DNA of 64,000 bases from an uncultured Gemmatimonas sp. Lineage in GTDB: Bacteria; Gemmatimonadota; Gemmatimonadetes; Gemmatimonadales; GWC2-71-9. Both the position numbers and the translations under genes were made by a program. The stretch covers positions 198,730-262,729 of the forward strand of contig CAZUES010000001.1 in NCBI GenBank assembly GCA_964619465.1, written 5' to 3'. Within the stretch, counting starts at the first letter, position 1. Each line of letters starts with the position of its first letter. The notes below the pieces were generated by a model. The model saw nothing but the letters and a program-made list of their open reading frames with translations. It was not told the origin of the DNA and did no database searches. Positions 1 through 24,529 of the stretch are shown one piece after another.

Positions 1-2979
1 CTTGGCCAGCGCGGCCACCAGTTCCGTCATCTGCTCGGGCTGACTCGGGTTCACCGCATAGGTCGTCGCATCGATCTGCTGGAATCCGGCGCCCGGCAGG
101 ACCGAGATCACGGTCCCATCGCGTCCCAGGCGGGTTGCAAGTGATGCACCCAGTCCCTGCTCGTCACGGAAAACCAGCCAGCGCATACCGGCCGCCAGTG
201 TCGTCTTCGCAGCAAGTGGGGCGCGCTGCCAGGTGGTTTCGTAGAACCACTGGCCGACATCGTTCCGCCGTGCCAGCGACGGCTTGGCTGCCGTGGCGCC
301 CTTGCCGGGCTGAATGAAGTACTGCTGGTGCTCGAAGGGATAGGTCGGCAGCGGAATCCGACGGCGCTGCTCGCCCTTCCAGAGACTGCTCCAGTTGGGT
401 ACGACACCGCCGAGCCAGAGGCGACCCACCATGGCGAGCGCGTGCGCGACGTCCGAGCCGGCCTCGTCCGGGTGGCGCATCGAGGTCAGCGTCGGTTGAT
501 CTGCCTTGCGATCGGAGTGGAGCGATGCCAGCGTCGCGAGGACTCGGCCCGGGCCGATCTCGAGCAGCACTCGACCTTCATCTCGGAGCAGTACGCCGAT
601 GCCATCGGCAAACCGAACCGTGTGGCGGAGATGTCGGACCCAGTACTCGGGGCTAGTCGCCTCCTCGGGCTTGATCCAGTCGCCCGTCACGTTGGAGACG
701 AATGGACGAGTCGGCGGGCTCAGCGCGATCCGGCGGAAAAACTCGCCGAACTCCTTGAGGATCGGCTCGAGCATGGCCGAATGGGCCGCGATGTTGATGC
801 GGATACGGCGGCAATCGATCTCATCGGCGGCGAGGGCCTTTTCCAGCGCATCGAGCGCGTGAAGGGGGCCGGACGCAACACAGAGTTCCGGCGCGTTGAT
901 CGCGGCAATCGAAAGCTCGGCGGGCAGCCGCTTCTCGAGGTCCGCGACGGCCAGCGGCACGCTGAGCATGCCGCCCGGCGGAATCCGCTCGAACAGCTTG
1001 CCACGCAGCGTAACCAGGGCCAGGCCGTCGGCGAGCGAGAAGACGCCGGCGAGATGGGCGGCGGTGTACTCGCCCATGCTGTGCCCGATCATCGCCTGCG
1101 GTTCGAGGCCCCAGGCCAGGCACAGCTTGGCCATGGCGTACTGGGTGATGAACAGGCAGGGCAGCGAGCGCGACGGGCGTTCGAGTTCCTCGCCCAGGCG
1201 GTCCCGATCGGCCGGAGCCGCCAGCAGCAGGGACTTGAGATCCCAGTCGAGTTGGGGCTGGAGCAGGGCAACGCACTCGTCCACGGCCGCGCGGTAGACC
1301 GGCTCCCGCTCGTAGAGATCCGCACCCATACCCGCGTACTGCGCACCGCCGCCGGCAAACATGAACGCCAGGGCGCGCTTTCGGTCGGAGACCTGAGCGG
1401 TCGGCACGACTTTGGGATCATTTCGCTCGAGCAGGTCGGCCGCTTCCGATGCGCTCTGCGCCACCACCATCCGGCGGTGAGCCAGTGCCTGGCGTCCGTT
1501 GGCGAGCGTAAACGCAACGTCGGCCGGCGAGTTCGGGTCCGTGCGCAGAGACGCAGCCAGGTTGGCACTGGCCGCATCGAGCGCCGTCGGGGTCTTGGCG
1601 GACAGCAGGTAGAGCTGGTGCTCGCGCGACGGTCCTGAGGGCGGCAGTGCCGGTGCCTCTTCGACGATCACATGTGCATTGGTACCGCCGGCACCGAGCG
1701 AACTGATACCGGCGCGGCGCGGGCCGCCATCGGTGGTCCAGTCACGGAGTTTGTCGTTCACGAAGAACGGGCTCGAAGCGAAGTCGATAGCCGGATTCGG
1801 CTCGGTGTAGTGCAGCGAAGGCGGAATCTGTCGATGCTTGAGCGCCTCGACCGTCTTGATCACGCTGGCAATGCCGGCTGCGGTATCGAGGTGCCCGACA
1901 TTCGACTTGAGCGATGCGATGGCGCAATATCCCGTTCGCTCCGCACCGGCGCCCTGGTAGGCCTGGGTCAACGCGGCGATCTCGATCGGGTCGCCGACCG
2001 GCGTCGCGGTGCCATGGCACTCGACGTACTGAATCGATTCCGGATCCACGTCCGCCAGCGCCAGAGCCTCAGCCACGGCCTGGGCCTGGCCGTCGACGCT
2101 CGGCGCCAGGAAACCGACTTTCTGGGCGCCGTCGTTGTTGATCGCGGAGCCCTTGATCACGGCGTGGATCGTGTCGCCGTCGCGGATGGCGTCCGCGAGG
2201 CGGCGGAGGACTACGATTCCTGTGCCGCTGCCGAATACGGTGCCCTCTGCCTTGGCGTCGAACGCGCGGCAGTGGCCATCCGGCGCCATGATCTCGCCCT
2301 CTTTGTACAGGTAGCCGACCGGATGCGGCTGCTTGACGGTGGTGCCCCCCGCGAGTGCCATGTCGCACTCGTTGTTGAGCAGGCTCTGGACCGCCAGGTG
2401 GACCGCCACGAGCGACGTGGAGCAGGCCGTCTGTACGTTGACGCTGGGGCCGCGCAGGTTCATCAGATACGATGCACGGGTGGCGAGGAAGTCCTTATCG
2501 TTGCCGGTGTGCCGGATCAGAAAGAAACCGACGTTCTCGACCAGCTCGGGGTTGGTGAGCAGGTTGAACATCATGTAGACGTTGGCGCCGCAACCGGCAA
2601 AGACGCCGACCGATCCGCCGAAGCGCTCGGGTGCGTGGCCGGCGTGTTCCATTGCCGTCCAGGCGACTTCGAGGAAATGGCGTTGCTGCGGGTCCATGAT
2701 GGCCGCCTCGCGCGGAGCAAACCCGAAGAAGCCCGCGTCGAATCCGGCCATGTCGGGCATCTGAAACGAGGCGCGCACATAGTCCGGATCGGTCAACAAC
2801 TCGTCGGAAACCCCTGCGGCGCGCAACTCCTCGTCGGTCAGTCGAGTGACGCTCTCGACGCCGTCGCGAAGATTGCTCCAGAAAGTGGCGACGTCCGAGG
2901 CACCCGGGAACCGGCCCGCCAGGCCGACGATGGCGATGTCGGTCTCGGCGGAACCGGGAGGAAGCTGCTGCTCGCTCAT
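1..2979 (-). CDS. Type I polyketide synthase (KS-AT-, continuing past the left edge; partial)
   Basis: Missing from the ORF track because there is no stop in the window. Manual translation from ATG 2979 gives MSEQQLPPGSAETDIAIVGLAGRFPGA, KS motifs VQTACSTS, ECHGTATPVGDPIE and KSNVGHL, AT motifs GHSMGEY and NIAAHS, then post-AT LPTYPFE and a WFYETTW...WLVF.D..GLG segment resembling the start of a KR structural subdomain. Motifs sampled along the gene all fall in one frame, down to about position 120. Confidence 0.95.
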   Translation of the reverse strand, partial: MSEQQLPPGSAETDIAIVGLAGRFPGASDVATFWSNLRDGVESVTRLTDEELRAAGVSDELLTDPDYVRASFQMPDMAGFDAGFFGFAPREAAIMDPQQRHFLEVAWTAMEHAGHAPERFGGSVGVFAGCGANVYMMFNLLTNPELVENVGFFLIRHTGNDKDFLATRASYLMNLRGPSVNVQTACSTSLVAVHLAVQSLLNNECDMALAGGTTVKQPHPVGYLYKEGEIMAPDGHCRAFDAKAEGTVFGSGTGIVVLRRLADAIRDGDTIHAVIKGSAINNDGAQKVGFLAPSVDGQAQAVAEALALADVDPESIQYVECHGTATPVGDPIEIAALTQAYQGAGAERTGYCAIASLKSNVGHLDTAAGIASVIKTVEALKHRQIPPSLHYTEPNPAIDFASSPFFVNDKLRDWTTDGGPRRAGISSLGAGGTNAHVIVEEAPALPPSGPSREHQLYLLSAKTPTALDAASANLAASLRTDPNSPADVAFTLANGRQALAHRRMVVAQSASEAADLLERNDPKVVPTAQVSDRKRALAFMFAGGGAQYAGMGADLYEREPVYRAAVDECVALLQPQLDWDLKSLLLAAPADRDRLGEELERPSRSLPCLFITQYAMAKLCLAWGLEPQAMIGHSMGEYTAAHLAGVFSLADGLALVTLRGKLFERIPPGGMLSVPLAVADLEKRLPAELSIAAINAPELCVASGPLHALDALEKALAADEIDCRRIRINIAAHSAMLEPILKEFGEFFRRIALSPPTRPFVSNVTGDWIKPEEATSPEYWVRHLRHTVRFADGIGVLLRDEGRVLLEIGPGRVLATLASLHSDRKADQPTLTSMRHPDEAGSDVAHALAMVGRLWLGGVVPNWSSLWKGEQRRRIPLPTYPFEHQQYFIQPGKGATAAKPSLARRNDVGQWFYETTWQRAPLAAKTTLAAGMRWLVFRDEQGLGASLATRLGRDGTVISVLPGAGFQQIDATTYAVNPSQPEQMTELVAALAK

Positions 2980-2982
2980 TGC

Positions 2983-5900
2983 TTACTGATCCTGTGAATC
3001 TGGACTCGCGCCGGCCGGGCGACGCCCGCGCCGGCGCTGCATCGCTTCGCGCCGGGCATCGGCCCGCGCTTGTGAGACTTCCGTAGTGGCGACGGCCGGA
3101 GCTGCGCCGCCCAAATGTTCCGCCAGCGACCGGATGGTCGGGAAGCGGAAGAGATCGGTGATCGACACCGGACGATCGATCGCGCTCCGAAGCCGCGAAT
3201 GCACTTTCACCGTCAGGAGCGAGTGTCCGCCGATATCGAAGAAATTGTCGTTGACGCCGACCTGGGGAACCCGAAGCGCTTCCTGCCAGATCGCGGCAAT
3301 GGTCTGTTCGAGTTCGCTGCCCGGCTGTACGTAGCTGGCAGCTGGTGCGGCGCTGTGGTCGGGCGCGGGCAGTGCTTTGCGGTCGATCTTGAGATTGGGC
3401 GTCCGCGGCAACCGGTCGAGGACCACGACATGGCTCGGGACCATGTACTCCGGGAGCCGCGCGCCGATGGCCTGGCGGATTTCCATCGGGTCGGGTCGCT
3501 GCCCTGTGCGGGCAACCAGATAGGCCACGATCCGTTTGTCTCCCGGAACATCTTCTCGCGCAATGACCACGGCTTCCCGTACCGTCGGGTGCTGCTCGAC
3601 GATGGCCTCGATCTCGCCCAGTTCGATCCGGTGGCCGCGAATCTTGACCTGGTGATCGAGCCGGCCGAGGAACTCGAGCTGCCCGTCCATGCGCCAGCGC
3701 ACCAGGTCGCCGGTGCGATAGACCCGGTTGCCCGGCGCCAGCGGATCGTCGATGAACCGCTCGGCCGTCAGCTCCGGACGATTCAGATAGCCGCGCACCA
3801 CGCCCGCGCCGCCGATCAGCAGTTCGCCGGCCACGCCGACGGGAACCGGTTCGAGGTTCCGATCGACCACGCGGCAGACCGTATTGGCAATCGGCGTTCC
3901 GAGCGACACCGACGTGACGCCCTGTTCCAGCCGATGGGTGGTCGACCAGATGGTCGTTTCCGTCGGACCGTACATGTTGATGACGTCACCCTGGACCAGC
4001 TGCTCCAGCTCGCCGGCCAGAGCGGGCGGGAACGCCTCGCCGCCGATCATCAGCCTGGTGAGTCCGGCAAAGCCGGGTTTGACCTCGGGCTGCGCGGCCA
4101 GCATCGCCGCCATCGACGGCGTGCACTGGAAATGGGTCACATTCCAGCGGCGGAGCTGGGCAGGAATGTCATAGTCGGCTGAGGCGCTCGCGGAGGACTC
4201 CTCCGAGCGACGGCGCAGTTCCGCGAGATCCTCCAGGCCCGCCAGGGTGTCGTCGATCGAAACCCCGAAGTCGATCAGGCAGGCAATCTCGTCGACGTCC
4301 ATGCCCTTGACCCGCTCGACCATCTCGAACGTCGTCTCGGGCGTTCCCATCAGGGCGCTGGTGTCGAAGTACCGATGGAAGGCATGGTCGAGCAGCGCCT
4401 CCATGTCCTCCTTGGTAAACTCGGCCGATCGCATGTCCTGACCCCGTCCCTCCGCCAGGCCCTTGATCAGGTCTACGGAGGTGCGCAGGTATTCTCGGAA
4501 CGGATGCCAGACCCGGGCTTTGACCTGTTCCATGTCGGGATGGACATAGGTATGGAGCATCAGGCTGACATGCCCGGCTCCCGCGTGGCCGGCTCGGCGC
4601 CAGGCCGCCCGGTACGCAGCAACCTTCTCGCGCAGAATCTCGGGGCTCTGTCCCAGCAGATGGGTCAGGATGTTGGCGCCGAGTTCTCCGGCTTTCTCGT
4701 ACGTCGCGGTGGTGCCGGCGGCGGTTACCCAGATCGGAAGTTCCGGCTGAATCGGGCGCGGCAGCGTCGTGATCGAGACATCCTTACCGGCTCCCCCCGG
4801 CATGGTAACCGCCTCGCCGCGCCAAAGGCGCCGGACGGTATCGATCATTTCCACCATGATCTCGCGCCGCCGCTCGTAGTTCTGCGGAGCAAAGACGAAA
4901 TCGCGATCGTGCCAGCCCGAGGCGAACGCCAGACCGACGCGACCGTTCGACAGGTTGTCGATCACGGCCCAGTCTTCGGCCACGCGGACGGGGCTGTGGA
5001 GCGGAAGCACCACGCTTCCCGTGCGAATCTTGATCCGCGACGTAATGGCCGCGATCGCTCCGCTCACCACCGCCGGGTTCGGGTAGAGACCGCCGAAGGC
5101 GTGGAAGTGTCGTTCGGGCGTCCAGATTGCCTCGAACCCGTTGGCGTCACCGAACTTGGCACCTTCGAGCAGCATGCGGTATCGGTCGCCGGGGGCGGCA
5201 TCGGCGGCGCTCGAGAAGTAGAAGAGGCTGAAGCCCAGCTTGCGATCCGACCGGGGAGTGCCCGTCTGCGCGCGCACTCGTTCGGGGTCGCCCTGGATCA
5301 CGACGTGGAAGCCGCGCGTCAGGGTCCAGAAGAGTTCGAGCACCGAGATGTCGAACGAGATGCTGGTGACCGCGAGCCAGGTGCCCGGCCCGTCGCCGCC
5401 GATCCGCTCGTCCATCCCGAGGAAGAAGTTGACCACGTTTCGGTGCTCGATCATGACGCCCTTGGGACGCCCGGTCGAACCCGAGGTGTAGATCACGTAG
5501 GCCAGGTCACTCGGCGCGGCGCCGCCATCCAGGTTGTCGTCCGGCAGGCGCGCAAATGACACCGCATCCAGGTCGACCCGCAGAACCTTGGCAGTCGTGG
5601 CCGGCAAGCGATCGACCAGGCGACCTTGGGTGATGATGACCGGCGCCGCGCTGTCTTCCAGCATGAAGGCGACCCGATCGGCCGGATAGGCCGGGTCCAG
5701 AGGCAGGTACGCACCTCCCGCCTTGAGGGTCGCCAGCATGCCGACCAGCATCTCGAGCGACCGCTCCGCAAAGATGCCGACCGGAACCCCGGCAGCCACG
5801 CCCAGCTCGCGGAGGCGTCGAGCCAGCCGATTCGCGCGCGTGTTGAGGTCATGGTAGCTCAGCGTCTCGTGCTCGAAGCTTGCGGCGGGCGCATCGGGCG

Positions 5901-8900
5901 TCAGCGCCACTTGGCGTTCGAACTGCGTGACCAGGGTGTCCGCGGCAGGCAGGGCTCGAACTGTGTCGTTCCAGACCCGATCGATCTGCACGTGCTCCGC
6001 CGGCGTCAGGATCCCCAGGCGCTCGATCGGCAGATCGGGTGCTCTGGCGGCTGCGCCGAGCAGCGTGACATAGTGGTTACCCAGGCGCTCGATCGTCGCT
6101 GCGTCGAACAGGTCGGTGTTGTACTCGAGATGGCCGACGTACCCCCCATCTTGCACGGCAAGCGAGAGGGTCAGGTCGAACTTGGCGGCGCCGGCGTCGA
6201 CGTCGATCTGTTCCAGGACCACGCCCGGCAGCGCCAGCGGGTGGACCGGCGTGTTCTGCAGGATGAAGAGCACCTGGAAGAGCGGTGAACGGCTCAGGTC
6301 GCGCGGCAGGTGAAGCCCCTCGACCAGGCGTTCGAATGGCAGGTCCTGATGCTGGAAGGCGCCCAGGGCCACTTCGCGAACCCGGCCGAGCAGCGTCCGG
6401 AAGCTGGGATTGCCGGCCAGGCTGGTGCGCAGCGCCAGGGTATTGACGAAGAACCCGATCAGCCCTTCCGTCTCGAGCCGGGTCCGTCCAGCCGTCGGCG
6501 ATCCGACAATGATGTCATCCTGCCCGGTGTACCGGCTGAGCATGGCCTGAAAGGCGGCCAGCAGCACCATGAACGCGGTGGCATCCTCTTCGGCGCCGAG
6601 TGTTTTGAGTCGGGCGGCGAGTTCGGTCGGAATCTCGAAACGGTGCGTCGAGCCCTTGAAGGTCTGAATAGGGGGACGCGCGCGGTCGGTCGGCAAGTCG
6701 AGTGTCGGCAGCGGTGCGGCGAGCAGACGGGTCCAATGCTCGAGCTGCCGGGCCAGGACCGATTCACTCAGCCAATCCCGCTGCCAGGCCGCGAAGTCGC
6801 CGTACTGGATCGGCAGCTCGGCCAGCGGCGAGGGTTCGCTCGACGCGTAGGCGCGGTAGAGTGCGCCGATTTCCTGATAGAGCACCCCGCGCGACCACCC
6901 GTCGGAGACGATGTGGTGCATCACGATGACCAGGAGGTGGTCGTCTGCGGACGTTTTGAGCAGCGTACCCCGAAACAGCGGTCCATTACTCAGGTCGAAC
7001 GGCTGCGAGGCAAGGTCTGCCGCGCGGCGGGTCAACGTCTCGTCGCTTGCGGGGGAGATCGTCTCGACGGCGAGGGTAAATCCATCGGCCGGTCTGACCA
7101 CCTGGCGGGCCACGCCATCGGTGCTGGGGAACGTCGTGCGCAGCGCCTCGTGACGCCGGACGATTTCCGTCAGGGTGCGTTCGAGTGCGCTCCGATCCAG
7201 TGCGCCGCGCATCCGGAATGCGGCCACCAGATTGTAGGCGGCGCTGTCCGGCTCGATCTGGTTGAGCACCCAGAGTCGTTCCTGAGCAAACGAGAGCGGG
7301 GCCGTCGTCCCCTCGGGCAGCCGGCCGATGGCGATGTCGGCCCCGCCGGATTCCTGGCCGAGTGCCACGACGGCCGCGGTCAGCGCAGCAACCGTTGGCT
7401 GCTCGAACAGTACTCTGAGCGGTGGTTCGGCGCCGAAGACGGAACGCACCCGCGCCAGCACCCGAACGGCCATCAGCGAGTGGCCGCCGATCTCGAAGAA
7501 ATGATCGTGGACGCCGACCGGAGACACTCCGATCACGTCCTCCCAGATGCGCGCCATGGCCCGCTCGGCGTCGGTCCGCGGCGCCAGGTACGCGGCGCCG
7601 TCGGCGCCGAAGGTAACGGGCAGGGACGACAGGGCGCCACGGTCGAGCTTGCCATTCGGCGTCCGGGGCAACGCAGGCAGAACCTGGAAGGCCGACGGGA
7701 CCATGTACTCCGGGACCGAACGGAGCAGGTGTTCCCGAAGCTCTCGACTGGTCGGAGCAGTGCCGTTCGAGGACGTCACGAAGGCAACCAGTGCCGTTTC
7801 GCCCTGGTGCTCGCGGGCCTGCACGGCCGCCGCCGTTACCTGCGGATGGCGCTGCAGCGTTGCTTCGACTTCTTCCACCTCGACCCGGTGGCCGCGCACT
7901 TTGAGCTGGTTGTCACGTCGCCCGGTAAAGGTGAGCAGTCCGTCCGGACGCCGAAGGCCCAGGTCGCCGGTGCGATAGAGCCGCCGCCCGACGGCCGGGT
8001 GTTCAACGAACCGCTCGGCGGTCAGATCCGGGCGATTGTGATAGCCGGGACCGACCGCAGCGCCGCCGATCCAGATCTCTCCGGCGGTACCGTCCGGCAC
8101 CGGTGAGCCCGACTCGTCCAGCAGGTGGATTTCGGTGCGCGGCAAGGGCGATCCAAGCGGAGCGACCGCGCTATCGGCCAGGAGGCTCGGGGTCAGGGTC
8201 ACGGTCGAGACGATGCCTGCCGTCTCGGTCTGTCCATACATGTTGATGAAGCGGGTCTGGCCGCCGGTGAGGGCCAGCCAGCGCTGAACCAGCGCCGATG
8301 GAAGCGGCTCGCTGGCCGACAGCGTCAGGCGCAGCGTCGAGCCTGCCAGCTGCGAGGGATCACTCTCCGCGGTTTCGATCAGGCGTGACCAGTACGACGG
8401 CACCAGGTCGATCACGGTTACCCGGGCGCGGCGGCACACCTGCAGCAGCTCCCGCGGGTCGGCAATCTCGGCGCGGCGCGCAATGACCACGCAGCCGCCC
8501 GTCAGCAGGGGCGCGAACAGCTGACGCACCGACGACGAGAAGGCCAGCGATGCGGTATGGAGGAATCGGTCCTGAGCTGCCAAACCGATCGCTTCTGTGA
8601 TGGCTGCGCTGTAATGGCTGAGGTTCCCATGAGTGATGATGACACCCTTGGGTTGGCCGGTTGAGCCCGACGTATATATCAGATAGGCTGGTGTGCCCGG
8701 TTCGACGTTTTCCGTCTCGGCTGGTTCGGCGGTGGTGGTGTCGTCGAGCAGGATTTCCCGTACGCCGGCCTCGGCCAACTCGCCGGAGCGCGCCCGGCTG
8801 GTGAGCAGGGTGGTTGCACCGGAGTCTCTCAGGATCCAGGTCATGCGGTCGCGCGGGTACGCCGGATCGAGGGGAACCCACGCTGCGCCGAGCTTCAGAA

Positions 8901-9150: not shown

Positions 9151-9333
9151 AGAGCCGAGCTAGAATTGCGTGTTTAGCCTGGTTTGACAGAGCTACCAGG
9201 GCGACCAGTTGTGACGAAGCAAGAATCGGGCGCATCACAGGCAACGACTTGCAGCGGCTTGGCTCGACTTGCTCTTGCGGAACAACACTTTCGTTGCATT
9301 CTAGCCGCAGGACCCCTCCGAAACATCCTTAAG

Positions 9334-12219: not shown

Positions 12220-12226
12220 GAGGTTC

Positions 12227-15702: not shown

Positions 15703-16547
15703 CAAAATATCGAGATTCCCAGAACGAGGACCCCCAGCAGCAGCTGGGCCGGGAGCAACCACCGCATCATGTTCGACCCGGGAGGCAGCGCCGCGTCCAC
15801 CGATCCGCCAACGATGATTTCGTCGCCGCCGTGCAGGTTCAGATTGTCGAGCGACTGCCCGCCGGCAACGGCAGCCCGCAGCTGCTCGCGTGAGACGATT
15901 TCCCGACTGGCTCGCCGTACGATGGTCTTGTTGACATCGGACGCCATCGTCGGGCCACCGGCCGCCATGATCGCATCGCTGACCAGTCGATCAGCCGGAA
16001 GATTGTAATAGCCGGGGTTCGATACGGCGCCAAGGACGGCGAGCCGAATGTACGACGCCTGAATGAGCACCTGCGGGTTCTTGACGTACTTACCGATTTC
16101 CTTGGTAAGGTACTCGGAACTCTCCGATCGAAGCACGCCTTCGAGCGAGATCGGCGGCAGGTTGGGAAACGCCACGACGCGGCCGGGCAGGATAGTAAAA
16201 GTGCCGGTCAGGCCGGTGTCTCCGACAACCGCAACTTCGATCTGATCGCCAACCTGGAAGTCTCCCTGGACCAGGCGCTGCTGGACCATCGCGGCTTCGG
16301 CTTCCTTGGCTCGCCTGAGCGAGCCGCTGTAGCCCGTAGAGGAGGTGATCTCCCGCAACTGAACCAGGGCCGCTTCGAGCTCCGGGCGGGTTGCCTGGGC
16401 TCTGCGGACGTCGATGAGCGGGTCCTGTGCCTCGAGATGCGAGGCGGTGCCAACGATCAACCCGACAAGGGCAATCCGCACCCACCTTCGTACCCCACCT
16501 GATCGTACCCTCATCCCGAACCCTTTGGCGAAGAATCGATGTAGCAT
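15702..16547 (-). CDS. Polysaccharide export protein (Wza-like, Poly_export + SLBB)
   Basis: Signal-like N-terminus, FQVGDQIEVAV, LPPISLEG, VLGAVSNPGYY, AIMAAGG, LHGGDEIIV and a C-terminal hydrophobic helix. Confidence 0.8.
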   Translation of the reverse strand: MLHRFFAKGFGMRVRSGGVRRWVRIALVGLIVGTASHLEAQDPLIDVRRAQATRPELEAALVQLREITSSTGYSGSLRRAKEAEAAMVQQRLVQGDFQVGDQIEVAVVGDTGLTGTFTILPGRVVAFPNLPPISLEGVLRSESSEYLTKEIGKYVKNPQVLIQASYIRLAVLGAVSNPGYYNLPADRLVSDAIMAAGGPTMASDVNKTIVRRASREIVSREQLRAAVAGGQSLDNLNLHGGDEIIVGGSVDAALPPGSNMMRWLLPAQLLLGVLVLGISIF

Positions 16548-16915: not shown

Positions 16916-17806
16916 ATGGGTGAAACGCCCCGTACCGGCTCCCTCACGATCTTGGTTGCGAACGATCAGGAATGGGCTGCTCGCTCGCTCGAGTCGATTC
17001 TGGTCGCAGAGGGATATCGGGTGGTCCGGGCGTTCAACGGCCGCCAAGCGCTCGATCGCGCGGCAGCGAGTAGACCGGACGCCGTCATTCTCGATCTGCA
17101 GATGCCCGACTTGGACGGATTGTCTGTTTGCCAGACGCTCCGTGCCGGGCCTGACTGGCGCAGTTCTACCCCGATCTTCATAACGACGGCCGGCCCCTCG
17201 GGACGGCGGGAACGGTTTGCGGCCTATCGAGCGGGCGCATGGGAATTTTTTGGGCACCCGCTCGATGCGGAGGCCATCCTGATCAAGTTGAAGCTCTTCC
17301 TCGAGGTCCAGTCCGCGTCCGATAGCGGTCGTGAAGACGGCCTGGTCGACACCCCGTCCGGACTCTACAATCGGCGGGGTCTGCTGCGTCGAAGCACCGA
17401 ACTCGTGGCCGACGCTGCGCGGCGCAAGGAGAGAGTCAGTTGTGTCATGCTGCGTCCGACCGAACCCGTCGATGCGGCGTCTGTCGATGCTGCCGACGGC
17501 CTGGTGCGTCAGCTGGGCGAGGTGCTCCGACGGGCCGGCCGGTGTTCGGACGCGATCGGACGCCTTGGTCCGCTGCAGTTTGCGGTGCTGGCGGTTGGGG
17601 CGGGAGATGTCATGGCTACGCAGCTGGCTGATCGGGTCAACGACCTGACCGCACAAGCCGGTCTGGCGGGATCCATCGGTCGTCCGAGTCTCACCTTTGC
17701 CGCGACTCGTCACCTCGTGCCTGATGTCGGCACGATCTTCGATTTTGCCGAATCGGACACGGCAACCGATGCGCGGGGCCTGCCCCTAGGCCTTACACCA
17801 TCCTGA
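16916..17806 (+). CDS. Response regulator with degenerate GGDEF-like domain
   Basis: REC with ILDLQMPDLDG. GGDEF-like DTPSGLYNRRG...RCSDAIGRLGPLQFAV: the active site is degenerate, the RxxD site is present. Confidence 0.8.
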   Translation: MGETPRTGSLTILVANDQEWAARSLESILVAEGYRVVRAFNGRQALDRAAASRPDAVILDLQMPDLDGLSVCQTLRAGPDWRSSTPIFITTAGPSGRRERFAAYRAGAWEFFGHPLDAEAILIKLKLFLEVQSASDSGREDGLVDTPSGLYNRRGLLRRSTELVADAARRKERVSCVMLRPTEPVDAASVDAADGLVRQLGEVLRRAGRCSDAIGRLGPLQFAVLAVGAGDVMATQLADRVNDLTAQAGLAGSIGRPSLTFAATRHLVPDVGTIFDFAESDTATDARGLPLGLTPS

Positions 17807-17860: not shown

Positions 17861-20287
17861 TCAGTTCCGCGGGAGCGAGATCGGCTGATCGGCCGGTGTC
17901 GCCGATTCCTCGTTTTCTCCTCGCGTCGTGTACTCGTAGGCGTAGTACTTGTACGATCCCTTGCCGATATCGATGTGATTCAGGACGGCACCGAGCAACC
18001 GAGTCGGCAGTCGATCCATCAGCTGGATCTTCGCCTCGGCCAGTTCACGGTCCGTTTCCCCGGCGCGCAGTACCAGGATGGCATTCCCGGTGACGGTGCT
18101 GAGCACGAACGGATCGATGCCGGCGCCGAGCGGCGGACTGTCGATCAGGACGACCTGGTATTGTGAGCGAAGCGTCTTGACCAGGTCGACCATCGCAGAT
18201 GAGCCGAGCAGCTCCGGGCCGCGCGAGGCACGGGTTCCACAAGGAATCAACGTCAGCTGCGGATGCGCAGCGGTCTGACGGCAGACCTGTTCCAGGGTTG
18301 CTTCACCATTCAGGTAGTCCAGCAGGCCGGGGCGGCGATCGCCACCGAAGACGCGGTACAACTCGCCTCGACGGGTGTCGCCGTCGATCAGTACCGTTTC
18401 ATAGCCCGCTTGCGCGAACGACATGGCCAGGTTCGATGAGATCAGAGACTTACCGTCCCCGGCCATCGGGCTGGTGATGGTGAGCAGAATCGGGTCACCG
18501 TCGGCAAAAGAATGCGCCAGGTTGAGCCGAATTGAGCGGAAGGCCTCGACGATCTGAGCCGTTTCCACATCAGAGAGCACCGCACCTCGACTCTTGCGCA
18601 CCACGGGAATCGCTCCCAGGATCGTCAGCCCGAGACCTTGCGAGACCTGGTCGGGATAGCGGAACCGCTTATCGAGCCGATCGAGGACGATTGCGAGAGC
18701 GAGGGCCAGCCCTAAGCTGGCGACAACGCCGAACAGGACGATTCGCGGGGCCGTATTGGACGTCGGGTAGCCTGCGATTTCGGCGCGGTCGAGAATCCGG
18801 ACATCGGGTGTCGCGGTCAGTTCGGCCAGCCGGGCTTCCTGCATCCGTGCCTGCAGATTCTGACGCAGCGTGACGGTCGACTGCGCATCGCGCGCAAGCC
18901 TGTCTTCCATGGCCGTCCGGACCGGAATCTGCCGCAACTCGCGGGAGTCGCGATCGATTTCGGCCTGCAGCGTGGCTTCCTGTGTGCGCAGCTGGCTGAT
19001 CAGGCGCTCCGCGTAGAGCGGGACGGTGCGTGAGGTGAGTTCACCGAGATCGGCCACCAGTTTTTTGATGCCGCCGTACTCGTCGGTGTAGCGAGTGCGG
19101 AGTCCCCGCAACTCGGCTTCCGTCCGAGACACTTCGCTCAGCACGGTCATCAGATCCGGGGCATTACGGACGGCAGGGACCATATTGTAGGCGTCAACGG
19201 GAACCGACCCGGTTTGCCCGCCCTGACGGACCAGCGCTTCGATGGCTCGCCGGTCCTTCTCGAGATTGCTCAACTCGAGGCGTTTGGCCGTGAAGCTGGT
19301 CATCACCGTTGTCTGCGTCTGCTGCAGGCCTGCAGGGAGGGGCGCCTGCTGCTCGAGGCGTGGCTCGGTGATCGTAGTGACGCGATAGGTTTCGAGGGCC
19401 GTTTCCGCGTTGCGCATTGCGGAGTCGGCGATGCGGATCTGTTCCCCGAGATCTTTCGTGACGTTGGCGATCTGATCTCGCTTGAGACCATCTGCGACCT
19501 TCATGAACTGATCGAGGATCGCATTGAGAATGGTCGCCGCCCGCTCGGCGTTCGAGTCCTGGAGCCCGATGACCATCAGGGCGCTGTTCTGGACCACTCG
19601 CACCTGGAGAGCGCTGGCGAGTCCTTCCGAAATGTTGCGCGGGACAGTGACCGTGAACGGTACCTCGACACCGGCTGCGAGTGACCCCTGAGGCGGAGCC
19701 CACTGAAATCCGATCGATCGTCCGATCGAGTCCCCGATGATGCCGGTCTCGACGGGGATGCTCTTACCCATGATCAGGCTGTACCGCTGGCCCGACGCAT
19801 CGACCTGAAGCCGGTAGTCACCGGGCTGGAACCGAGGGGCCAGATCGAACTGCTGGAAAGCCCCGCCAGTTTCCGGAGGATGCCAAAGATAGAGGCGATT
19901 GTCCCGGACCACCGGGTCGATCACTGCAAAGCTGCGAATCAGCTGGGGCCACGAGTTGTCCCGCAGAACCCCATCCGGCCGGATCGGTCCGCTTCCCGAC
20001 TGACCCGAGGGGGCGATATACACGGTTGCGGACGAGGTGTACGATGGTTGGATGAAGCGAGTAGCGAAAATGCTCCCGACCGTTCCAAGGGCCAAGATGG
20101 TCAACACGAGCCACTTATACCGGAATACGGCCGAGATCATCCGGCCGATATTGAGGCCTCCCGCTTCGTCGCCCTCATCATGCGCGTCGGGGGATGCCAG
20201 GCTGGCGTCGACCTGACCGAGCGCGGAGCCGGTCGTGGGTTGGAGAGCACTGCCCTGGGCAGATCCGCCGAACATCTGATTCTTCAT
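17861..20287 (-). CDS. wzc: Wzc-like polysaccharide co-polymerase / tyrosine autokinase
   Basis: Two TMs flanking a coiled-coil periplasmic region; EAFRSIR, Walker A SPMAGDGKS, LIDGDTRRG, LIDSPP and Tyr cluster YKYYAYEY. Confidence 0.93.
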   Translation of the reverse strand: MKNQMFGGSAQGSALQPTTGSALGQVDASLASPDAHDEGDEAGGLNIGRMISAVFRYKWLVLTILALGTVGSIFATRFIQPSYTSSATVYIAPSGQSGSGPIRPDGVLRDNSWPQLIRSFAVIDPVVRDNRLYLWHPPETGGAFQQFDLAPRFQPGDYRLQVDASGQRYSLIMGKSIPVETGIIGDSIGRSIGFQWAPPQGSLAAGVEVPFTVTVPRNISEGLASALQVRVVQNSALMVIGLQDSNAERAATILNAILDQFMKVADGLKRDQIANVTKDLGEQIRIADSAMRNAETALETYRVTTITEPRLEQQAPLPAGLQQTQTTVMTSFTAKRLELSNLEKDRRAIEALVRQGGQTGSVPVDAYNMVPAVRNAPDLMTVLSEVSRTEAELRGLRTRYTDEYGGIKKLVADLGELTSRTVPLYAERLISQLRTQEATLQAEIDRDSRELRQIPVRTAMEDRLARDAQSTVTLRQNLQARMQEARLAELTATPDVRILDRAEIAGYPTSNTAPRIVLFGVVASLGLALALAIVLDRLDKRFRYPDQVSQGLGLTILGAIPVVRKSRGAVLSDVETAQIVEAFRSIRLNLAHSFADGDPILLTITSPMAGDGKSLISSNLAMSFAQAGYETVLIDGDTRRGELYRVFGGDRRPGLLDYLNGEATLEQVCRQTAAHPQLTLIPCGTRASRGPELLGSSAMVDLVKTLRSQYQVVLIDSPPLGAGIDPFVLSTVTGNAILVLRAGETDRELAEAKIQLMDRLPTRLLGAVLNHIDIGKGSYKYYAYEYTTRGENEESATPADQPISLPRN

Positions 20288-20348: not shown

Positions 20349-20364
20349 TGCAAGGTCGGTACCC
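20349..20364 (-). promoter_or_regulatory. Sigma54 (-24/-12) promoter of wzc
   Basis: Minus strand GGGTACCGACCTTGCA: GG-N10-GC with TTGCA, about 60 bp upstream of ATG 20287. Confidence 0.6.
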
Positions 20365-20641
20365 AGACGGTCAGACCGGACCTTCTCCCTTCGAGACCAT
20401 TACCTGCTGCCCAATGGCCCGCCTGACGGCAACACATCAACGCGATTGTGTAGCATTTTCGGTCCATCTGGTTGGTCAGGCCTGCCATCGACACGCACCT
20501 CTTGTGGCTAAAAACAGCACACTTTTGCAAGTTGGTGCTCTCATCTCTTCACTGTAACACGCCCGCTCCAGTTCCGGTGCACAATCTCGGCACATCGCGG
20601 AGTGTGTAGTTGTTTCATCCATCCATCACCAAAGCTATAGA

Positions 20642-20681
20642 TGTTGCTTGCACGCCGCATTATTGTTGCATGTGCGCATTG
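20642..20681. promoter_or_regulatory. Second copy of the tandem TGTTGC-N4-RCGCA motif
   Basis: TGTTGCTTGCACGCCGCATTATTGTTGCATGTGCGCATTG; same 22-bp period as 9334-9373. Confidence 0.6.
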
Positions 20682-20750
20682 GTGAAAATTGCCGGTGTTG
20701 TCAGCGACCCGCATCAAGGTCAGGAAACGGATCTAGAGCTGCTGTCTTTA

Positions 20751-20765
20751 CGGCACAGTTCTCGC
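20751..20765 (+). promoter_or_regulatory. Sigma54-like promoter upstream of the activator gene
   Basis: CGGCACAGTTCTCGC: GGCAC-N5-TCGC with correct spacing and one mismatch to TTGC. Confidence 0.45.
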
Positions 20766-20798
20766 CTGAAAGTGATGCAACCGGGCAGCGCAGAACCT

Positions 20799-22355
20799 AT
20801 GGATACACGGGGTAGCAGGTCGATGGGAGTACCCCCACATCTCGAAAACGGTCCAAAGGATCCCCCCCAGGTGGAGACGCCAGGGGCGCGGGATCCCTTG
20901 TCGATCCCGTCGGACGTCAAAGCCGGGATCCGGATTCTCTTAGTCGATGACGAACGGACCCTTCGGGAGAGTTGCGCCAGCGTCCTCCAGATGGACGGAT
21001 ACTCTGTCACATTAGCCGGCCGTGGTGAAGAAGCGCTCGACCTGCTCAAGAGCCGCCGCTTCGACATCGTGCTGGTCGACCTGTACATGTCGCAGGTCTC
21101 CGGCCTGGCCATCCTCCAGGCCGCGCTCGGCGCCCATCGCGATACCATCGTCGTCGTGATGACCGGCAACCCGAGTGTCACCACGAGCATCGAAGCGCTT
21201 CGTGCCGGTGCCTGGGACTACCTGCCCAAACCGTTTTCTGCCACGCATCTGCAGGTGCTGATTGGCCGCGCCTCGCACGCCGTCATGGTGGCTCGCGAAG
21301 CGAGCGACCTGCGCCAGCAGTTGCTGCACCAGCACAGTCACAGCGACAACATCGCGCTGATCGGTATCTCTCCGCTGTTCCGGAAGGCCATCGAGCTGGC
21401 CCGCAAAGTCGCGCCGACCGACGCCTCCGTCTTCATCAGCGGCGAGAGCGGAACCGGTAAAGAGGTGGTGGCGCAGTTCATCCATCAGAACAGTCGCCGC
21501 GCCAAGAAGACGCTGGTGCCGATCAACTGCGCCGCGTTGCCGGAGCAACTGCTCGAATCGGAGATGTTCGGGCATCGGAAAGGCGCCTTTACCGGCGCAG
21601 ACCGCGACAAGCCCGGGCTGCTCGAGATGGCCAACGGCGGCACGCTGTTCCTCGACGAACTGACCGAGATGCCGTTGCCGATCCAGGCCAAACTGCTCCG
21701 CGCAGTCCAGGATGGCGTGGTCCGCCGCGTCGGCTCGGAAACGTCGGACGCCACGGTCGATGTCCGATTCATCTCGGCGACCAACCGGGAACCGCAGCAA
21801 GCCGTCGAAAACGGGATTCTGCGGGGCGACCTGTACTATCGGCTTCGAGTGGTGCCGATCACCTTGCCGCCCCTCCGGAAACGCCTGGAAGACATCCCGC
21901 TGCTCGCCAATCACTTCCTGACGCACTACTGGGCCCGTCATCGCGGGATGCCCGATCGGACGCCGCGGATTTCGGAGGCTTGCATTGCGCACCTGCGCAG
22001 CCGGGCCTGGTACGGCAACGTCCGCGAACTCCAGAACGTGATCGAACATGTCGCCGTGCTGGCCGAACCCGATCAGGTGCTCGGTCCGGACGACATTCCG
22101 ACCTATGATGATCACGACGAGGCGCCTCGCGAAGCCCCGGCGCTGGCGCTGCCGGTAGCCGACGAAGCCTATCACCCGGCCAAAGAAAAAATCATTGCGC
22201 AGTTCGAACGTGATTACCTGGTGCGGTTGGTGGCGCGCGCCAACGGCAACATGTCGAAAGCTGCGCGGCTTGCCAGTGTCGACCGCACCACGCTGTATCG
22301 CCTGATGGACAAGCACAGCGTGCCGCGCGCCAAGGGAGCGGAGGACGGCGAATGA
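20799..22355 (+). CDS. Sigma54-dependent response regulator (NtrC family, REC-AAA+-HTH)
   Basis: LVDDE, LVDLYM, DYLPKPF, GESGTGKE, ESEMFGHRKGAFTGA, LFLDE, WYGNVRELQN and C-terminal HTH AARLASVDRTTLYRLM. Start uncertain (20799 or 20823). Confidence 0.94.
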   Translation: MDTRGSRSMGVPPHLENGPKDPPQVETPGARDPLSIPSDVKAGIRILLVDDERTLRESCASVLQMDGYSVTLAGRGEEALDLLKSRRFDIVLVDLYMSQVSGLAILQAALGAHRDTIVVVMTGNPSVTTSIEALRAGAWDYLPKPFSATHLQVLIGRASHAVMVAREASDLRQQLLHQHSHSDNIALIGISPLFRKAIELARKVAPTDASVFISGESGTGKEVVAQFIHQNSRRAKKTLVPINCAALPEQLLESEMFGHRKGAFTGADRDKPGLLEMANGGTLFLDELTEMPLPIQAKLLRAVQDGVVRRVGSETSDATVDVRFISATNREPQQAVENGILRGDLYYRLRVVPITLPPLRKRLEDIPLLANHFLTHYWARHRGMPDRTPRISEACIAHLRSRAWYGNVRELQNVIEHVAVLAEPDQVLGPDDIPTYDDHDEAPREAPALALPVADEAYHPAKEKIIAQFERDYLVRLVARANGNMSKAARLASVDRTTLYRLMDKHSVPRAKGAEDGE

Positions 22356-23428
22356 GCGAACGCGGTGACGGCGCGGCCGAACTCCTCGGCATGCTGACGA
22401 CCGCGACCGAACGCGCTTCCTCGAGCTGGGATTCGATCCGCGAGGACGCGGCGTCTCCGGAGGAAGTGGCCGCCACTGCCCGTCAACTCGCCGATGGCGT
22501 GCGCCACCGGCTGTCCGGTACCGGGCCGCCGCCGCCGGTATCCGGGAGCCCGCTCAGCCGGCGGATGCTCGGCCTCCTGCGCCGGGAGTTCGTCCGCCTC
22601 AATGAAACACAGCCCCATGCCGATGCCGCCGAGTTGATCCGGATGCTGGCGGCATTCGAACGATTGAGCACCGAGCTCGAGCCGGCCTGGGATCAGCGGT
22701 TCACCGACCGTCTCTCCGGGCCGGACGGCCTGGAGCTGGTCGTCGAGGTCGCCCATGATCTCCGATCGCCGCTGACCTCGATCCTGTTCTTGGCGGAAAC
22801 GCTCAACCGGGGACGGAGCGGTCCCGTCACACCCCTGCAGGAGCGCCAGCTGGGCTTGATCTACAGCGCGGCGTTCGGCCTGAGTTCCGTAGCAAGCGAT
22901 GTGATCGAACTGGCCCGCGGCGGCGACCGGCTGGTCGACCTGGAGCCGATGCCGTTCTCGGTGGCGGATATCCTCGAGTCGGTGCGCGACATCGTCCAGC
23001 CGATTGCCGAGGAAAAGGGCCTCGAGGTCAGGGTCACCGCGCCCGCCTCCAACTCGCGACAGGGCCATCCGGTTGCCCTGAGTCGTATCCTGCTCAACTT
23101 GACGACCAACGCCCTCAAGTTCACGGACGAAGGGTTCGTCGAGATCCGAGTTGCCGAAACGAGCTCCGGCGCACTCGAGTTTTCGGTTCGTGACAGCGGG
23201 CGCGGCATCCCGGCATCTGCTATGGCTACGCTGTTCGAGCCGTTCCGCCGTCGGCAGAAGGATCGTGACTATGCCTTCTCCGGCTCGGGACTGGGCCTTT
23301 CGATCTGTCGGAAACTGGTCGAGGCGATGCAAGGTGAGCTCAAGGTCGAGACCGGTTCGACCGGGACTCGATTCTTCTTCGTGCTCGATCTGCCCAGGAT
23401 CGACGCTGAATTTGGCTTGATCGGATAA
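22352..23428 (+). CDS. Cytoplasmic histidine kinase (HisKA + HATPase_c)
   Basis: H-box VAHDLRSPLTSI, N-box LNLTTNALKFT, DSGRGI, GSGLGLSI; no TM segment. Confidence 0.92.
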   Translation: MSERGDGAAELLGMLTTATERASSSWDSIREDAASPEEVAATARQLADGVRHRLSGTGPPPPVSGSPLSRRMLGLLRREFVRLNETQPHADAAELIRMLAAFERLSTELEPAWDQRFTDRLSGPDGLELVVEVAHDLRSPLTSILFLAETLNRGRSGPVTPLQERQLGLIYSAAFGLSSVASDVIELARGGDRLVDLEPMPFSVADILESVRDIVQPIAEEKGLEVRVTAPASNSRQGHPVALSRILLNLTTNALKFTDEGFVEIRVAETSSGALEFSVRDSGRGIPASAMATLFEPFRRRQKDRDYAFSGSGLGLSICRKLVEAMQGELKVETGSTGTRFFFVLDLPRIDAEFGLIG

Positions 23429-23431
23429 TCC

Positions 23432-24529
23432 ATGCCGACTTGGCTCCATATCGTCGGTGCCCGCCCAAATTTCATGAAGGTTGCCCCTGTGCTGACCGCC
23501 GGGGCCCTGCGCAATGTGCGGCAGTGCCTGGTCCATACCGGCCAGCACTACGACGCCGCCATGAGCGACACGTTCTTCTCCGATCTGGGCTTGCCAACCC
23601 CCGATGAAAACCTGGGCATCGGTTCAGGCACCCATGCCGAACAGACCGCGCGGATCATGCTGGCATTCGAGCCGGTGCTGGACCGGGTCCGACCCGATTG
23701 GGTCGTCGTCTACGGCGATGTCAACTCGACCATTGCCTGTGCCCTGGTAGCTGCGAAAAAAGGGGTCCGGATTGCGCACGTCGAAGCGGGCCTGCGGAGC
23801 GGCGACTGGTCGATGCCGGAGGAGGTCAACCGGGTTCTGACCGATCGGCTGTCGGATCTGTTGCTGACGCCGAGCCGGGACGCCGACGCCAATCTCCGGG
23901 CAGAGGGCATTGCCAGCGAACGGATCAGGTTCGTCGGCAATGTCATGGTCGATACCTTGCTCCGATTGGCCGATACCGCCCGGGCCATGAAGGTACCTGA
24001 GCGCTGGAACCTGCCGCCGCAGGGCTATGCGGTGGTGACCTTGCACCGGCCATCCAACGTCGACGATCCCGCCGTGCTGCGAGAGCTGGTTGGTGCGCTC
24101 GACGACCTCGCGCAATCCATGCCGGTCTGTTTTGCGGTGCATCCGCGCACCCGCCAGCGGATGCACGAGGCCGGGGTGCTGCCGTCCAACGCCGCGGTTC
24201 GACTGCTCGACCCGCTCAGCTATCTGGAGACGATCGGGCTGGTGGATTCCTCGCGGCTCGTGCTCACTGATTCGGGCGGCTTGCAGGAAGAAACGACGGT
24301 GCTGGGCATTCCCTGCCTTACGGCACGTCCCAACACCGAACGGCCGGTCACCGTCACCGAGGGCACCAACCGTCTGGTCGCGTCGACACGTTCGGCCATT
24401 GCCGCTGCGGTTGCCGATGTTCTCGCCCATGGGGCTGACGGGCCGCGCCAGTCGCGCCGTCCCGAAGGTTGGGACGGCGCGGCCGGCGTTCGGGTGGCCG
24501 AGGCGTTGCTCGGGACCCGGCAGGGCTGA
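23432..24529 (+). CDS. wecB: UDP-N-acetylglucosamine 2-epimerase (non-hydrolysing)
   Basis: GARPNFMK, HTGQHYD, HVEAGLRS, PEEVNR, TLHRPSN, TDSGGLQEE, TERP. Confidence 0.95.
   Translation: MPTWLHIVGARPNFMKVAPVLTAGALRNVRQCLVHTGQHYDAAMSDTFFSDLGLPTPDENLGIGSGTHAEQTARIMLAFEPVLDRVRPDWVVVYGDVNSTIACALVAAKKGVRIAHVEAGLRSGDWSMPEEVNRVLTDRLSDLLLTPSRDADANLRAEGIASERIRFVGNVMVDTLLRLADTARAMKVPERWNLPPQGYAVVTLHRPSNVDDPAVLRELVGALDDLAQSMPVCFAVHPRTRQRMHEAGVLPSNAAVRLLDPLSYLETIGLVDSSRLVLTDSGGLQEETTVLGIPCLTARPNTERPVTVTEGTNRLVASTRSAIAAAVADVLAHGADGPRQSRRPEGWDGAAGVRVAEALLGTRQG

Follow-up and report, generated by a model that had tools for sequence, protein, structure and literature searches.

RkpA of Sinorhizobium and WcbR of Burkholderia, both type I polyketide synthases (PKSs) of ABC-transporter-dependent capsule loci, are thought to make lipid. 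The type-1 accessory set of exosortase A (XrtA), as defined in TIGRFAMs/NCBIfam, comprises a ligase (TIGR03098), an ACP, a PLP decarboxylase (TIGR03099) and hydrolases (TIGR03100/TIGR03101); it has been catalogued, and its function is uncharacterised. The acceptor chemistry of exosortases has been an open question since 2006, as has the role of these catalogued "exosortase-associated" ligase, ACP and hydrolase genes. Here we describe, in a 64,000-nucleotide window from the genome of a soil-dwelling member of the Gemmatimonadales, a cassette of a nonribosomal peptide synthetase (NRPS), a PKS and two alpha/beta-hydrolase-fold proteins (Hyd2 and Hyd1) that lies inside a locus for exopolysaccharide (EPS) synthesis and an exosortase. 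Since the same arrangement recurs across several phyla, the product of the cassette is most likely fed into the machinery for cell-surface polymers rather than set free as an antibiotic.

Several described systems share parts of this arrangement. As in the XrtA accessory set, an adenylating enzyme and a carrier are followed by tandem hydrolase 2 and hydrolase 1 genes within an exosortase/EPS locus. By locus context, the cassette also resembles RkpA and WcbR, with a type I PKS among surface-polysaccharide genes. An analogy may be drawn to the Dlt system of teichoic-acid D-alanylation (DltA, DltC, DltB and DltD), in which an A domain loads a carrier and the acyl group is handed to a surface polymer instead of being released; by the same analogy, an AT3 acyltransferase and three SGNH/GDSL proteins of the locus could serve in membrane or extracytoplasmic transfer. 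MtaG and MelG, of myxothiazol and melithiazol biosynthesis, likewise carry a luciferase-like monooxygenase inserted in a glycine-activating A domain, and this domain hydroxylates the glycine C-alpha (PMC11342130). A link to PEP-CTERM/exosortase loci has also been described for N-acyl amino acid synthases (Craig, Cherry and Brady 2011, through the citing papers PMC7293339 and PMC5484115), and as far as these citing papers describe them, they too place an acyl-amino-acid-type product beside exosortase/EPS genes.

An assembly line inside an exopolysaccharide locus

The window (G000:C1:198730-262729) belongs to a metagenome-assembled genome of the Gemmatimonadales that is 90% complete (4.37 Mb, 91 contigs). 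Its genes were assigned by Pfam and NCBIfam profile scans, and a further 40 kb beyond its left end was examined. The cassette consists of four translationally coupled genes, NRPS, PKS, Hyd2 and Hyd1: from the NRPS through Hyd1 gene starts and stops overlap or abut, with Hyd2 overlapping the PKS stop and Hyd1 overlapping Hyd2. The part within the window (window coordinates) reads as follows:

1-2979, minus strand: type I PKS, N-terminal 993 aa (KS, AT and start of KR), the gene leaving the window at its left end (Pfam/NCBIfam)
2983-9150, minus strand: NRPS of 2055 aa, A1-T1-C-A2(luciferase-like monooxygenase insert)-T2 (Pfam/NCBIfam)
4213-5238, minus strand: luciferase-like monooxygenase of the MupA/Atu3671 family, inside the glycine A domain of the NRPS (TIGR04020, PF00296)

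A preliminary description of this DNA, made from the letters of the window, had called for a look at the left flank; there, the remainder of the PKS, Wzx and Wzy were recovered, and no thioesterase (TE). Past the PKS come Hyd2 and Hyd1 and then a GT4-like gene. Beyond a convergent junction follow genes for an XrtA-type asparagine-synthase-like amidotransferase, SGNH proteins and an ATP-grasp protein, as well as those for an stp2-like GT4, a polysaccharide deacetylase, Wzx, AT3 and Wzy. Since EPS genes are present on both sides of the NRPS and PKS, the assembly line lies in the interior, not at the edge, of an EPS locus that spans 45 kb or more. A KpsMT-type ABC transporter was not found among the ORFs annotated from -20 to +25 kb. 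GC content (0.664, versus 0.656 for the genome) shows no compositional anomaly. In a search of sequence runs, the locus was present in three DNA metagenome runs and in no RNA runs.

Recurrence of the linkage across genomes and phyla

We searched a phylum sample of 401 genomes for NRPSs whose A domain bears the monooxygenase insert, referred to here as A(LLM), and compared about 40 kb around each match. Such an NRPS is present in 21 of these genomes and in two of the seven genomes of the genus; the same-genus genomes G190 and G197 have an exosortase and lack the NRPS. The order NRPS-PKS-Hyd2-Hyd1 is kept together in G147, G171, G271, G294, G203, G282, G288 and G394, with neighbourhoods that include, in varying combinations, genes for Wzx, GT4, asparagine synthase, AT3, ATP-grasp, Wzc, or an exosortase with EpsI. 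As a control, A(LLM) NRPSs that lack the PKS and Hyd genes (G347 and G249) have no EPS neighbours. Metagenomic homologs, judged by the precomputed Pfam annotation of neighbouring genes, occur in differing gene orders beside Wzc, Wza, the priming transferase, a sigma54 activator (with or without a kinase), Wzx, GT4 and AT3, and also beside a cellulose-synthase-like GT2 with TPR and GH8 proteins. No efflux pump or ABC/MFS exporter adjoins the cassette in nine Pfam-annotated contexts. In G288 (contig C3, about 3077-3092 kb; L033/L034) the NRPS and PKS homologs occur as many short in-frame pieces, with a partial second PKS-Hyd2-Hyd1 copy after them; these pieces represent either a decayed cassette or indel errors of a long-read assembly.

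For a wider sample, GTDB species genomes were scanned with a Hyd1 alignment, yielding 232 relatives in hosts that include Gemmatimonadota, Myxococcota, Verrucomicrobiota and Acidobacteriota as well as Marinobacter, Oleiphilus, Cellvibrio and Chitinophaga, and neighbourhoods were taken from the best 80 of these 232. The hosts of these 80 loci belong to the Gemmatimonadota, Myxococcota, Gammaproteobacteria, Verrucomicrobiota, Bacteroidota and Acidobacteriota. With EPS markers detected by tblastn with the source genome's own proteins, a procedure that is insensitive in distant phyla, 31 (65%) of the 48 loci whose downstream flank extends for 8 kb or more have such a marker, versus 23 of 300 random windows from their own genomes (7.7%; P = 7e-18). 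The linkage persists in at least eight independent lineages, across phyla, despite rearranged gene order and homologs of 54-92% identity. The connection to a polysaccharide/exosortase locus proposed in the preliminary description is supported by EPS genes on both flanks and by its retention in rearranged homologous loci and across phyla, and homologs usually unlinked from EPS or exosortase genes, which that description had named as refuting evidence, were not what the comparison found. Its comparison to Rhodobacteraceae did not hold up: the host is a Gemmatimonadales genome, and no Rhodobacterales are among the best 80 Hyd1 loci.

Homologous loci are also present in cultured, non-pathogenic Marinobacter, namely M. 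lipolyticus SM19 and M. albus M216. The gene order in these two strains is NRPS-Hyd2-Hyd1-...-GT2-deacetylase-GT4-pyruvyl transferase-GT4-Wzx, and an exosortase is found at a distance of 11-19 kb. Immediately behind Hyd1 in M. lipolyticus SM19, and ahead of the sugar genes, is a gene for a 542-aa protein that combines Golvesin_C with bacterial TSP3 repeats (L124 11161-12789).

A paired Cys hydrolase and Arg pseudo-enzyme

The Hyd2/Hyd1 pair, which lies in the left flank and was not seen in the preliminary description, is the real key to the linkage. Hyd2 stands immediately ahead of Hyd1 in 78 of the best 80 loci, and wherever the flank permits, a PKS and/or an NRPS ending in a carrier domain is found just upstream of the pair. 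In the nucleophile elbow of Hyd1 (G-L-C-S-G), the place of the nucleophile is taken by an invariant Cys (Cys112; 16/16 and 12/12 of the sequences aligned), and Asp135 and His255 are invariant as well. The elbow of Hyd2 (G-L-R-x-G) has an invariant Arg at this position (16/16 and 18/18 aligned) and no conserved His, which makes Hyd2 a pseudo-enzyme. In alignments to serine hydrolases of solved structure, both the Hyd1 Cys and the Hyd2 Arg coincide with the catalytic Ser. Predicted structures have alpha/beta-hydrolase folds (pLDDT 77 for Hyd1 and 87 for Hyd2), fold searches with these models matched only generic lipases, esterases and feruloyl esterases, and no signal peptide was detected in either protein.

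The sole family matches of the two proteins are to TIGR03101 for Hyd2 (102.3 bits, cut-off 202.75) and to TIGR03100 for Hyd1 (76.6 bits, cut-off 168.45), that is, to exosortase A system-associated hydrolases 2 and 1, of which they are sub-threshold relatives. A smaller version of the cassette is present in Gemmatimonas sp. S07.Bin148 (L054 14073-19109), consisting of a stand-alone A-T protein of 598 aa, a Hyd2' with Arg and a Hyd1' with Cys. A full NRPS-PKS-Hyd2-Hyd1 set is located 3 kb upstream of it, and its immediate neighbour is an XrtA-like exosortase-EpsI fusion. This minimal set ties the large assembly line to the catalogued XrtA accessory cassette. In another genome (G086, contig C11, about 21567-23444; L021/L022), Hyd2 and Hyd1 are fused in one reading frame behind an NRPS without a PKS. 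The source locus and the 232 related loci show that the conserved core is a Cys/Arg pair of hydrolase fold, placed at the end of carrier-protein assembly lines that differ widely in size and lie in polysaccharide loci. In the library of papers searched, we found no description of NRPS/PKS lines ended by a Hyd2/Hyd1 pair in EPS loci.

Predicted chemistry of the assembly line

The A2 domain of the NRPS has the specificity code DILQMGMIWK, a glycine code. The inserted monooxygenase matches TIGR04020 with 511 bits (cut-off 244) over residues 1307-1646, between FDISVLE (A4) and NMYGPTE (A5), and PF00296 spans residues 1305-1616. The A1 code, S-S-R-D-T-S-M-G-I-K, lacks Asp235, with code positions verified against LgrA; FSSSVRQ stands in place of the expected FDxS, and S-S-R-D-x-S/T-M-G-I-K is kept in eight homologs (54-92% identity). 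The absence of this alpha-amino-binding Asp suggests that the substrate is something other than an alpha-amino acid, and the pocket is polar and charged (Arg239, Asp278). A special closeness of A1 to the LgrA glycine domain (531 bits) was considered and rejected, as the score is the sum of two ordinary A-domain matches (about 255 + 273). Some NRPS homologs have an extra N-terminal C domain; the source copy is without a starter C domain.

The full PKS (1879 aa) is organised as KS-AT-KR-DH-(A-domain C-terminal subdomain)-PCP, and its translation contains the KS TACSTS Cys, AT GHSMG, KR GGxGxxG, DH HPALLD and carrier GGHSL motifs. All three carrier-domain motifs of the assembly line are intact, as are those of its KS, C, KR and DH domains. 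The AT motif is IAAHS instead of HAFH or YASH. Residues ~1700-1865 (L006 6111-6608) comprise a relic A-domain subdomain (PF13193) and an NRPS-type carrier (GGHSL), not an ACP. The protein has no TE, R or terminal C domain, stopping 14 residues beyond the PCP, and no TE or other release domain was found anywhere in the operon.

Read colinearly, these domains predict that the final carrier bears acid-Gly(OH)-C2(enoyl/hydroxy). The acyl-glycine chemistry with one ketide extension and oxygenation put forward in the preliminary description agrees with the domain evidence (glycine code of A2, monooxygenase between A4 and A5, A1 without Asp235).

Exopolysaccharide and exosortase genes of the window

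To the right of the NRPS, the window contains the following genes:

9558-9971, plus strand: orf137, short GT2-like fragment, no Pfam match (87% identity in G147)
9968-11077, plus strand: GT2 glycosyltransferase (Pfam)
11005-12219, plus strand: GT4 glycosyltransferase (Pfam)
11822-13417, plus strand: cellulose-synthase-like GT2, 531-aa ORF, start uncertain (overlaps the GT4 ORF) (Pfam)
13395-14039, minus strand: EpsI, exosortase-associated protein (TIGR02914, 106.5 bits, cut-off 42.8; PF11984)
14036 to about 14920, minus strand: exosortase (PF09721, 204 bits; TIGR02602, 146.8 bits, cut-off 105.55)
14917-15762, minus strand: priming polyprenyl glycosylphosphotransferase (TIGR03025, 253 bits)
15702-16547, minus strand: Wza-like polysaccharide export protein, Poly_export + SLBB (Pfam)
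16916-17806, plus strand: response-regulator receiver fused to GGDEF (REC-GGDEF) (Pfam)
17861-20287, minus strand: Wzc-type chain-length determinant/tyrosine autokinase (Pfam/NCBIfam)
20610-22355 (ORF; likely start 20823), plus strand: sigma54-dependent response regulator, REC-AAA+-HTH_8 (Pfam)
22352-23428, plus strand: histidine kinase, HisKA + HATPase_c, 358 aa (Pfam)
23432-24529, plus strand: UDP-GlcNAc 2-epimerase (WecB) (Pfam)

The genes named in the preliminary description were all recovered in the order given there, whereas the REC-GGDEF gene at 16916-17806 (+) had been left out of it. The divergent intergenic region between the NRPS and the glycosyltransferases, previously put at 428 bp, extends over 9151-9557, or 429 bp when counted to the ATG at 9580. 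The GT4 ORF (11005-12219) and the cellulose-synthase-like GT2 ORF (11822-13417) share as much as ~400 nt, read in different frames, as they do in G147, and a homolog of this GT2 of equal length adjoins the cassette in L005. Next to WecB, where the EPS locus has its right edge, is a gene for a 397-aa protein with a bacterial archaeo-eukaryotic release factor domain (baeRF family 3, PF18845, E = 1e-44; 24534-25727, minus strand).

The exosortase matches no named subtype (best match XrtD with 198 bits, cut-off 400; XrtA TIGR03109 with 157.6 bits, cut-off 208). One clear PEP-CTERM protein is encoded in the genome (C23:4886-5599, minus strand), with 237 aa, a signal peptide, a TIGR02595 score of 21.2 bits (cut-off 16) and the tail TPEPASMVLMATGMLGLGVATAVRRRR followed by 14 more residues; a regex search of the 90%-complete genome found no second one. 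The genome thus has an exosortase and EpsI above their cut-offs and one substrate protein.

Of the 401 phylum genomes, 113 have an exosortase (PF09721), among them 11 of the 21 with an A(LLM) NRPS (P = 0.014); in other lineages, 28 of 50 Hyd1-bearing genomes have one. In the 23 genomes that have cassette and exosortase on one contig, the distance is 0.85-59 kb in 22, on contigs that include some of 0.7-6.4 Mb. Fragmented assemblies make contig-based distances look smaller than they are, and each P value was therefore scaled to the length of its contig; with one genome taken per lineage, the combined P is 1e-7. About half of the carriers (10/21 and 22/50) have no exosortase, which indicates that the cassette is independent of it and that its primary partner is the glycan pathway and not exosortase-processed proteins.

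Regulation

The candidate regulatory elements of the window are:

9216-9234, minus strand: 19-nt element TGCGCCCGATTCTTGCTTC, at -84 to -66 of the NRPS start codon (identical in same-genus G147)
9334-9373, plus strand: tandem TGTTGC-N4-RCGC, 22 bp apart, candidate enhancer-binding-protein upstream activating sequence (motif search)
9525-9540, plus strand: sigma54-type promoter CGGCACTGGGTTTGCT, towards the glycosyltransferase operon (motif; conserved in G147)
20349-20364, minus strand: sigma54-like element GGGTACCGACCTTGCA, towards wzc (motif)
20642-20681, plus strand: second copy of the tandem TGTTGC motif (motif search)
20751-20766, plus strand: sigma54-type promoter upstream of the activator gene (motif; identical in G147)

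A tandem motif common to the NRPS/glycosyltransferase intergenic region and the region upstream of the activator had been noted before, and it was found again as TGTTGC-N16-TGTTGC at 9334-9361 and 20642-20669, an arrangement with only three occurrences in the 4.37-Mb genome. Both copies are followed on the plus strand by a sigma54-type promoter, GGCAC-N5-TYGC, at 9526-9539 and 20752-20765. The position of the latter ahead of the activator's own gene implies predicted autoregulation. The sites at 9334-9373 are separated from the NRPS start by 184 bp and precede the glycosyltransferase-operon promoter by ~150 bp, and they are partly kept in G147. Relative to G147, the otherwise diverged intergenic region has three conserved islands, namely this promoter, one dyad and the 19-mer. 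A canonical GG-N10-GC sigma54 promoter facing the NRPS was sought in this region and not found. The 19-nt element resembles the GGG-N-TTCTTGCT sigma54-type elements ahead of NRPS homologs, with CG in place of the -24 GG. The GGGTAC-N5-TTGC form of the wzc element recurs upstream of the NRPS homolog in L047.

The sigma54 activator is similar to PrsR and scores below the family threshold (TIGR02915, 371 bits versus a cut-off of 502.6), and the NCBIfam scan gave no PrsK (TIGR02916) match for the kinase. The pair functions like PrsR (sigma54-dependent, with sites upstream of a PEP-CTERM gene) but is not an equivalog. The tandem motif resolves into GTTGC-N6-GCAAC-like dyads, of which the genome has 12 perfect copies. 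Four of these are in C1:146-188 kb (146536, 165228, 178624 and 187631; -52193, -33501, -20105 and -11098 in window numbering), within or to the left of the locus, where they cluster in the 42 kb on the left side of the NRPS cassette, suggesting that the activator regulon and the EPS region reach at least 50 kb to the left. Another perfect dyad, GTTGCTGGTACGCAAC, is ~150 bp upstream of the start of the PEP-CTERM gene on C23 (4886-5599). The sequence TGTTGC-N4-ACGC is not enriched genome-wide (12 sites versus 9.6 in shuffles), and hence only its clustering and tandem arrangement are informative. From these motifs, a common regulon of the glycosyltransferase, wzc, activator and PEP-CTERM genes is plausible, and its extension to the NRPS operon is only suggested.

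Proposed role and alternative explanations

We consider it about an even call that the cassette forms an integral part of an EPS and exosortase locus of the Wzx/Wzy type under sigma54 control and that the exported glycan is decorated with its product, a non-sugar unit. In such a pathway, A1 would load a polar carboxylic acid other than an alpha-amino acid, the C domain would couple this acid to glycine, and the monooxygenase would hydroxylate the glycine C-alpha, as in MtaG/MelG. The PKS would then append one malonate unit, followed by reduction and dehydration, and the finished chain would rest on the terminal PCP. Hyd1 would accept the chain as an acyl-S-Cys, with Hyd2 as a non-catalytic docking partner, and would hand it in the cytoplasm to the polysaccharide pathway. 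The acceptor could be the undecaprenyl-PP-linked repeat unit, or the chain could travel by way of the AT3/SGNH acyl-transfer proteins encoded there, much as in the Dlt system.

Several observations weigh against this proposal. The Cys hydrolase Hyd1 could merely hydrolyse the thioester, and the neighbouring glycosyltransferases could glycosylate a small molecule rather than build a polymer. Should the monooxygenase work the way it does in MtaG, the N-acyl-alpha-hydroxyglycine might break apart, which would leave the PKS with a substrate different from the colinear prediction. An EPS marker was missing from 35% of the well-flanked loci, by a tblastn test that is insensitive in distant phyla. 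Because the canonical sigma54 promoter faces the glycosyltransferase operon only and the element on the NRPS side is without the -24 GG, co-regulation of the NRPS is only suggested. In addition, an Sfp-type phosphopantetheinyl transferase was not found at the locus; a regex search gave only an AcpS-like ORF, at C1:~73 kb.

The main rival explanation is that the cassette makes a free small molecule (a signal, surfactant or matrix metabolite, comparable to long-chain N-acyl amino acids) that is released hydrolytically by Hyd1 and merely co-located or co-regulated with biofilm polysaccharide genes. Released metabolites are the usual output of NRPS/PKS systems, thioesterases are usually alpha/beta hydrolases, and about half of the carriers have no exosortase. 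However, the cassette is found inside EPS operons rather than beside them, the nine annotated contexts have no adjoining exporter, and known type I/II thioesterases show neither so strict a pairing of Cys enzyme and Arg pseudo-enzyme nor a fusion of the two; we therefore regard a free product as possible though doubtful. The distance between exosortase and cassette (60 kb or less in 22 of the 23 genomes with both on one contig, 1-8 kb in several), the direct contact of the Hyd pair with the exosortase in L054 and L105, the kinship of the hydrolases to exosortase A-associated families, and the GTTGC-N6-GCAAC dyad upstream of the sole clear PEP-CTERM gene would all be consistent with a product that serves as the handle or acceptor by which the exosortase covalently attaches PEP-CTERM proteins to the polysaccharide or envelope. 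This is unlikely, given the carriers without exosortase (10/21 and 22/50), a predicted product with no obvious free amine nucleophile, and the extracytoplasmic chemistry of exosortases as opposed to the lack of signal peptides in Hyd1 and Hyd2.

That the adjacency has no functional meaning, an independent cluster having landed in a variable EPS island, would fit the patchy distribution (2/7 in the genus and 21/401 in the phylum sample) and the known role of EPS loci as hot spots of gene-content variation. It is nonetheless improbable, as the linkage recurs with rearranged gene order in at least eight independent lineages and there is no compositional anomaly (GC 0.664 versus 0.656), and the enrichment statistics strongly disfavour it. 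The presence of a type I PKS within a surface-polysaccharide locus, as for RkpA/WcbR in capsule loci, is what speaks for a lipid anchor or carrier for the polysaccharide. This option, raised in the preliminary description, was not upheld and is highly improbable: the line has only one extension module, no FAAL and, in the source copy, no starter C domain, the A1 pocket is polar and charged (Arg239, Asp278), and the locus encodes an undecaprenyl-PP route (priming transferase, Wzx and Wzy) with Wza/Wzc and no KpsMT seen from -20 to +25 kb.

Returning to the decoration of an exported glycan, a more specific version holds that Hyd2/Hyd1 is a new class of carrier-protein-to-glycan transacylase, employed by lines ranging from minimal A-T cassettes to NRPS-PKS systems, and that, in exosortase-bearing genomes, the grafted unit (here an N-acyl-hemiaminal/enoyl glycyl-ketide) is a reactive handle joining PEP-CTERM proteins to EPS. 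We hold this version to be speculative and rather unlikely. If the pair does move its cargo onto glycan, bacteria would have a new way to decorate matrix polymers with peptide-polyketide units, and many "orphan NRPS/PKS clusters" would be reassigned from antibiotic discovery to cell-surface biology. The cultured Marinobacter carriers make the idea directly testable.

Comparison with known systems

Each of the related systems differs from the locus in specific ways. The N-acyl amino acid synthases, as far as they are described in the papers cited above, are small, GNAT-like enzymes that use acyl-ACP and have no homology to the assembly line or to the hydrolase pair. In MtaG/MelG the monooxygenase-bearing module is the last, a TE comes next and a terminal amide is left, whereas in the source locus a full PKS extension module comes next and there is no TE. 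Unlike the capsule loci of RkpA and WcbR, the source locus is Wzx/Wzy-dependent, and its line is too short to make a lipid unless the starter is long. The analogy with Dlt would likewise be partial, since the source locus has no MBOAT or DltD homolog, its transfer proteins would be a Cys alpha/beta hydrolase and an Arg pseudo-enzyme, and the cargo would come from a multi-module line.

Where the XrtA accessory set has a ligase and an ACP, the source locus has a 2055-aa NRPS and an 1879-aa PKS with integral T/PCP carriers; the NRPS scores 467 bits against TIGR03098, below the cut-off of 592 and summed across three A-domain stretches. The annotated ORFs between -20 kb and +25 kb include no PLP decarboxylase (TIGR03099). 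The source hydrolases and exosortase are sub-threshold (102 versus 203 and 77 versus 168 for the hydrolases, 158 versus 208 for XrtA), and the exosortase is not XrtA and is separate from EpsI. A search of the literature on exosortases with NRPS/PKS or ligase/ACP/hydrolase genes, on Marinobacter and on Gemmatimonadota did not find the arrangement described. The set in the window is an NRPS-PKS hybrid with a glycine-monooxygenase module and a non-XrtA exosortase in the Gemmatimonadales, and it is of a kind already catalogued, though uncharacterised.

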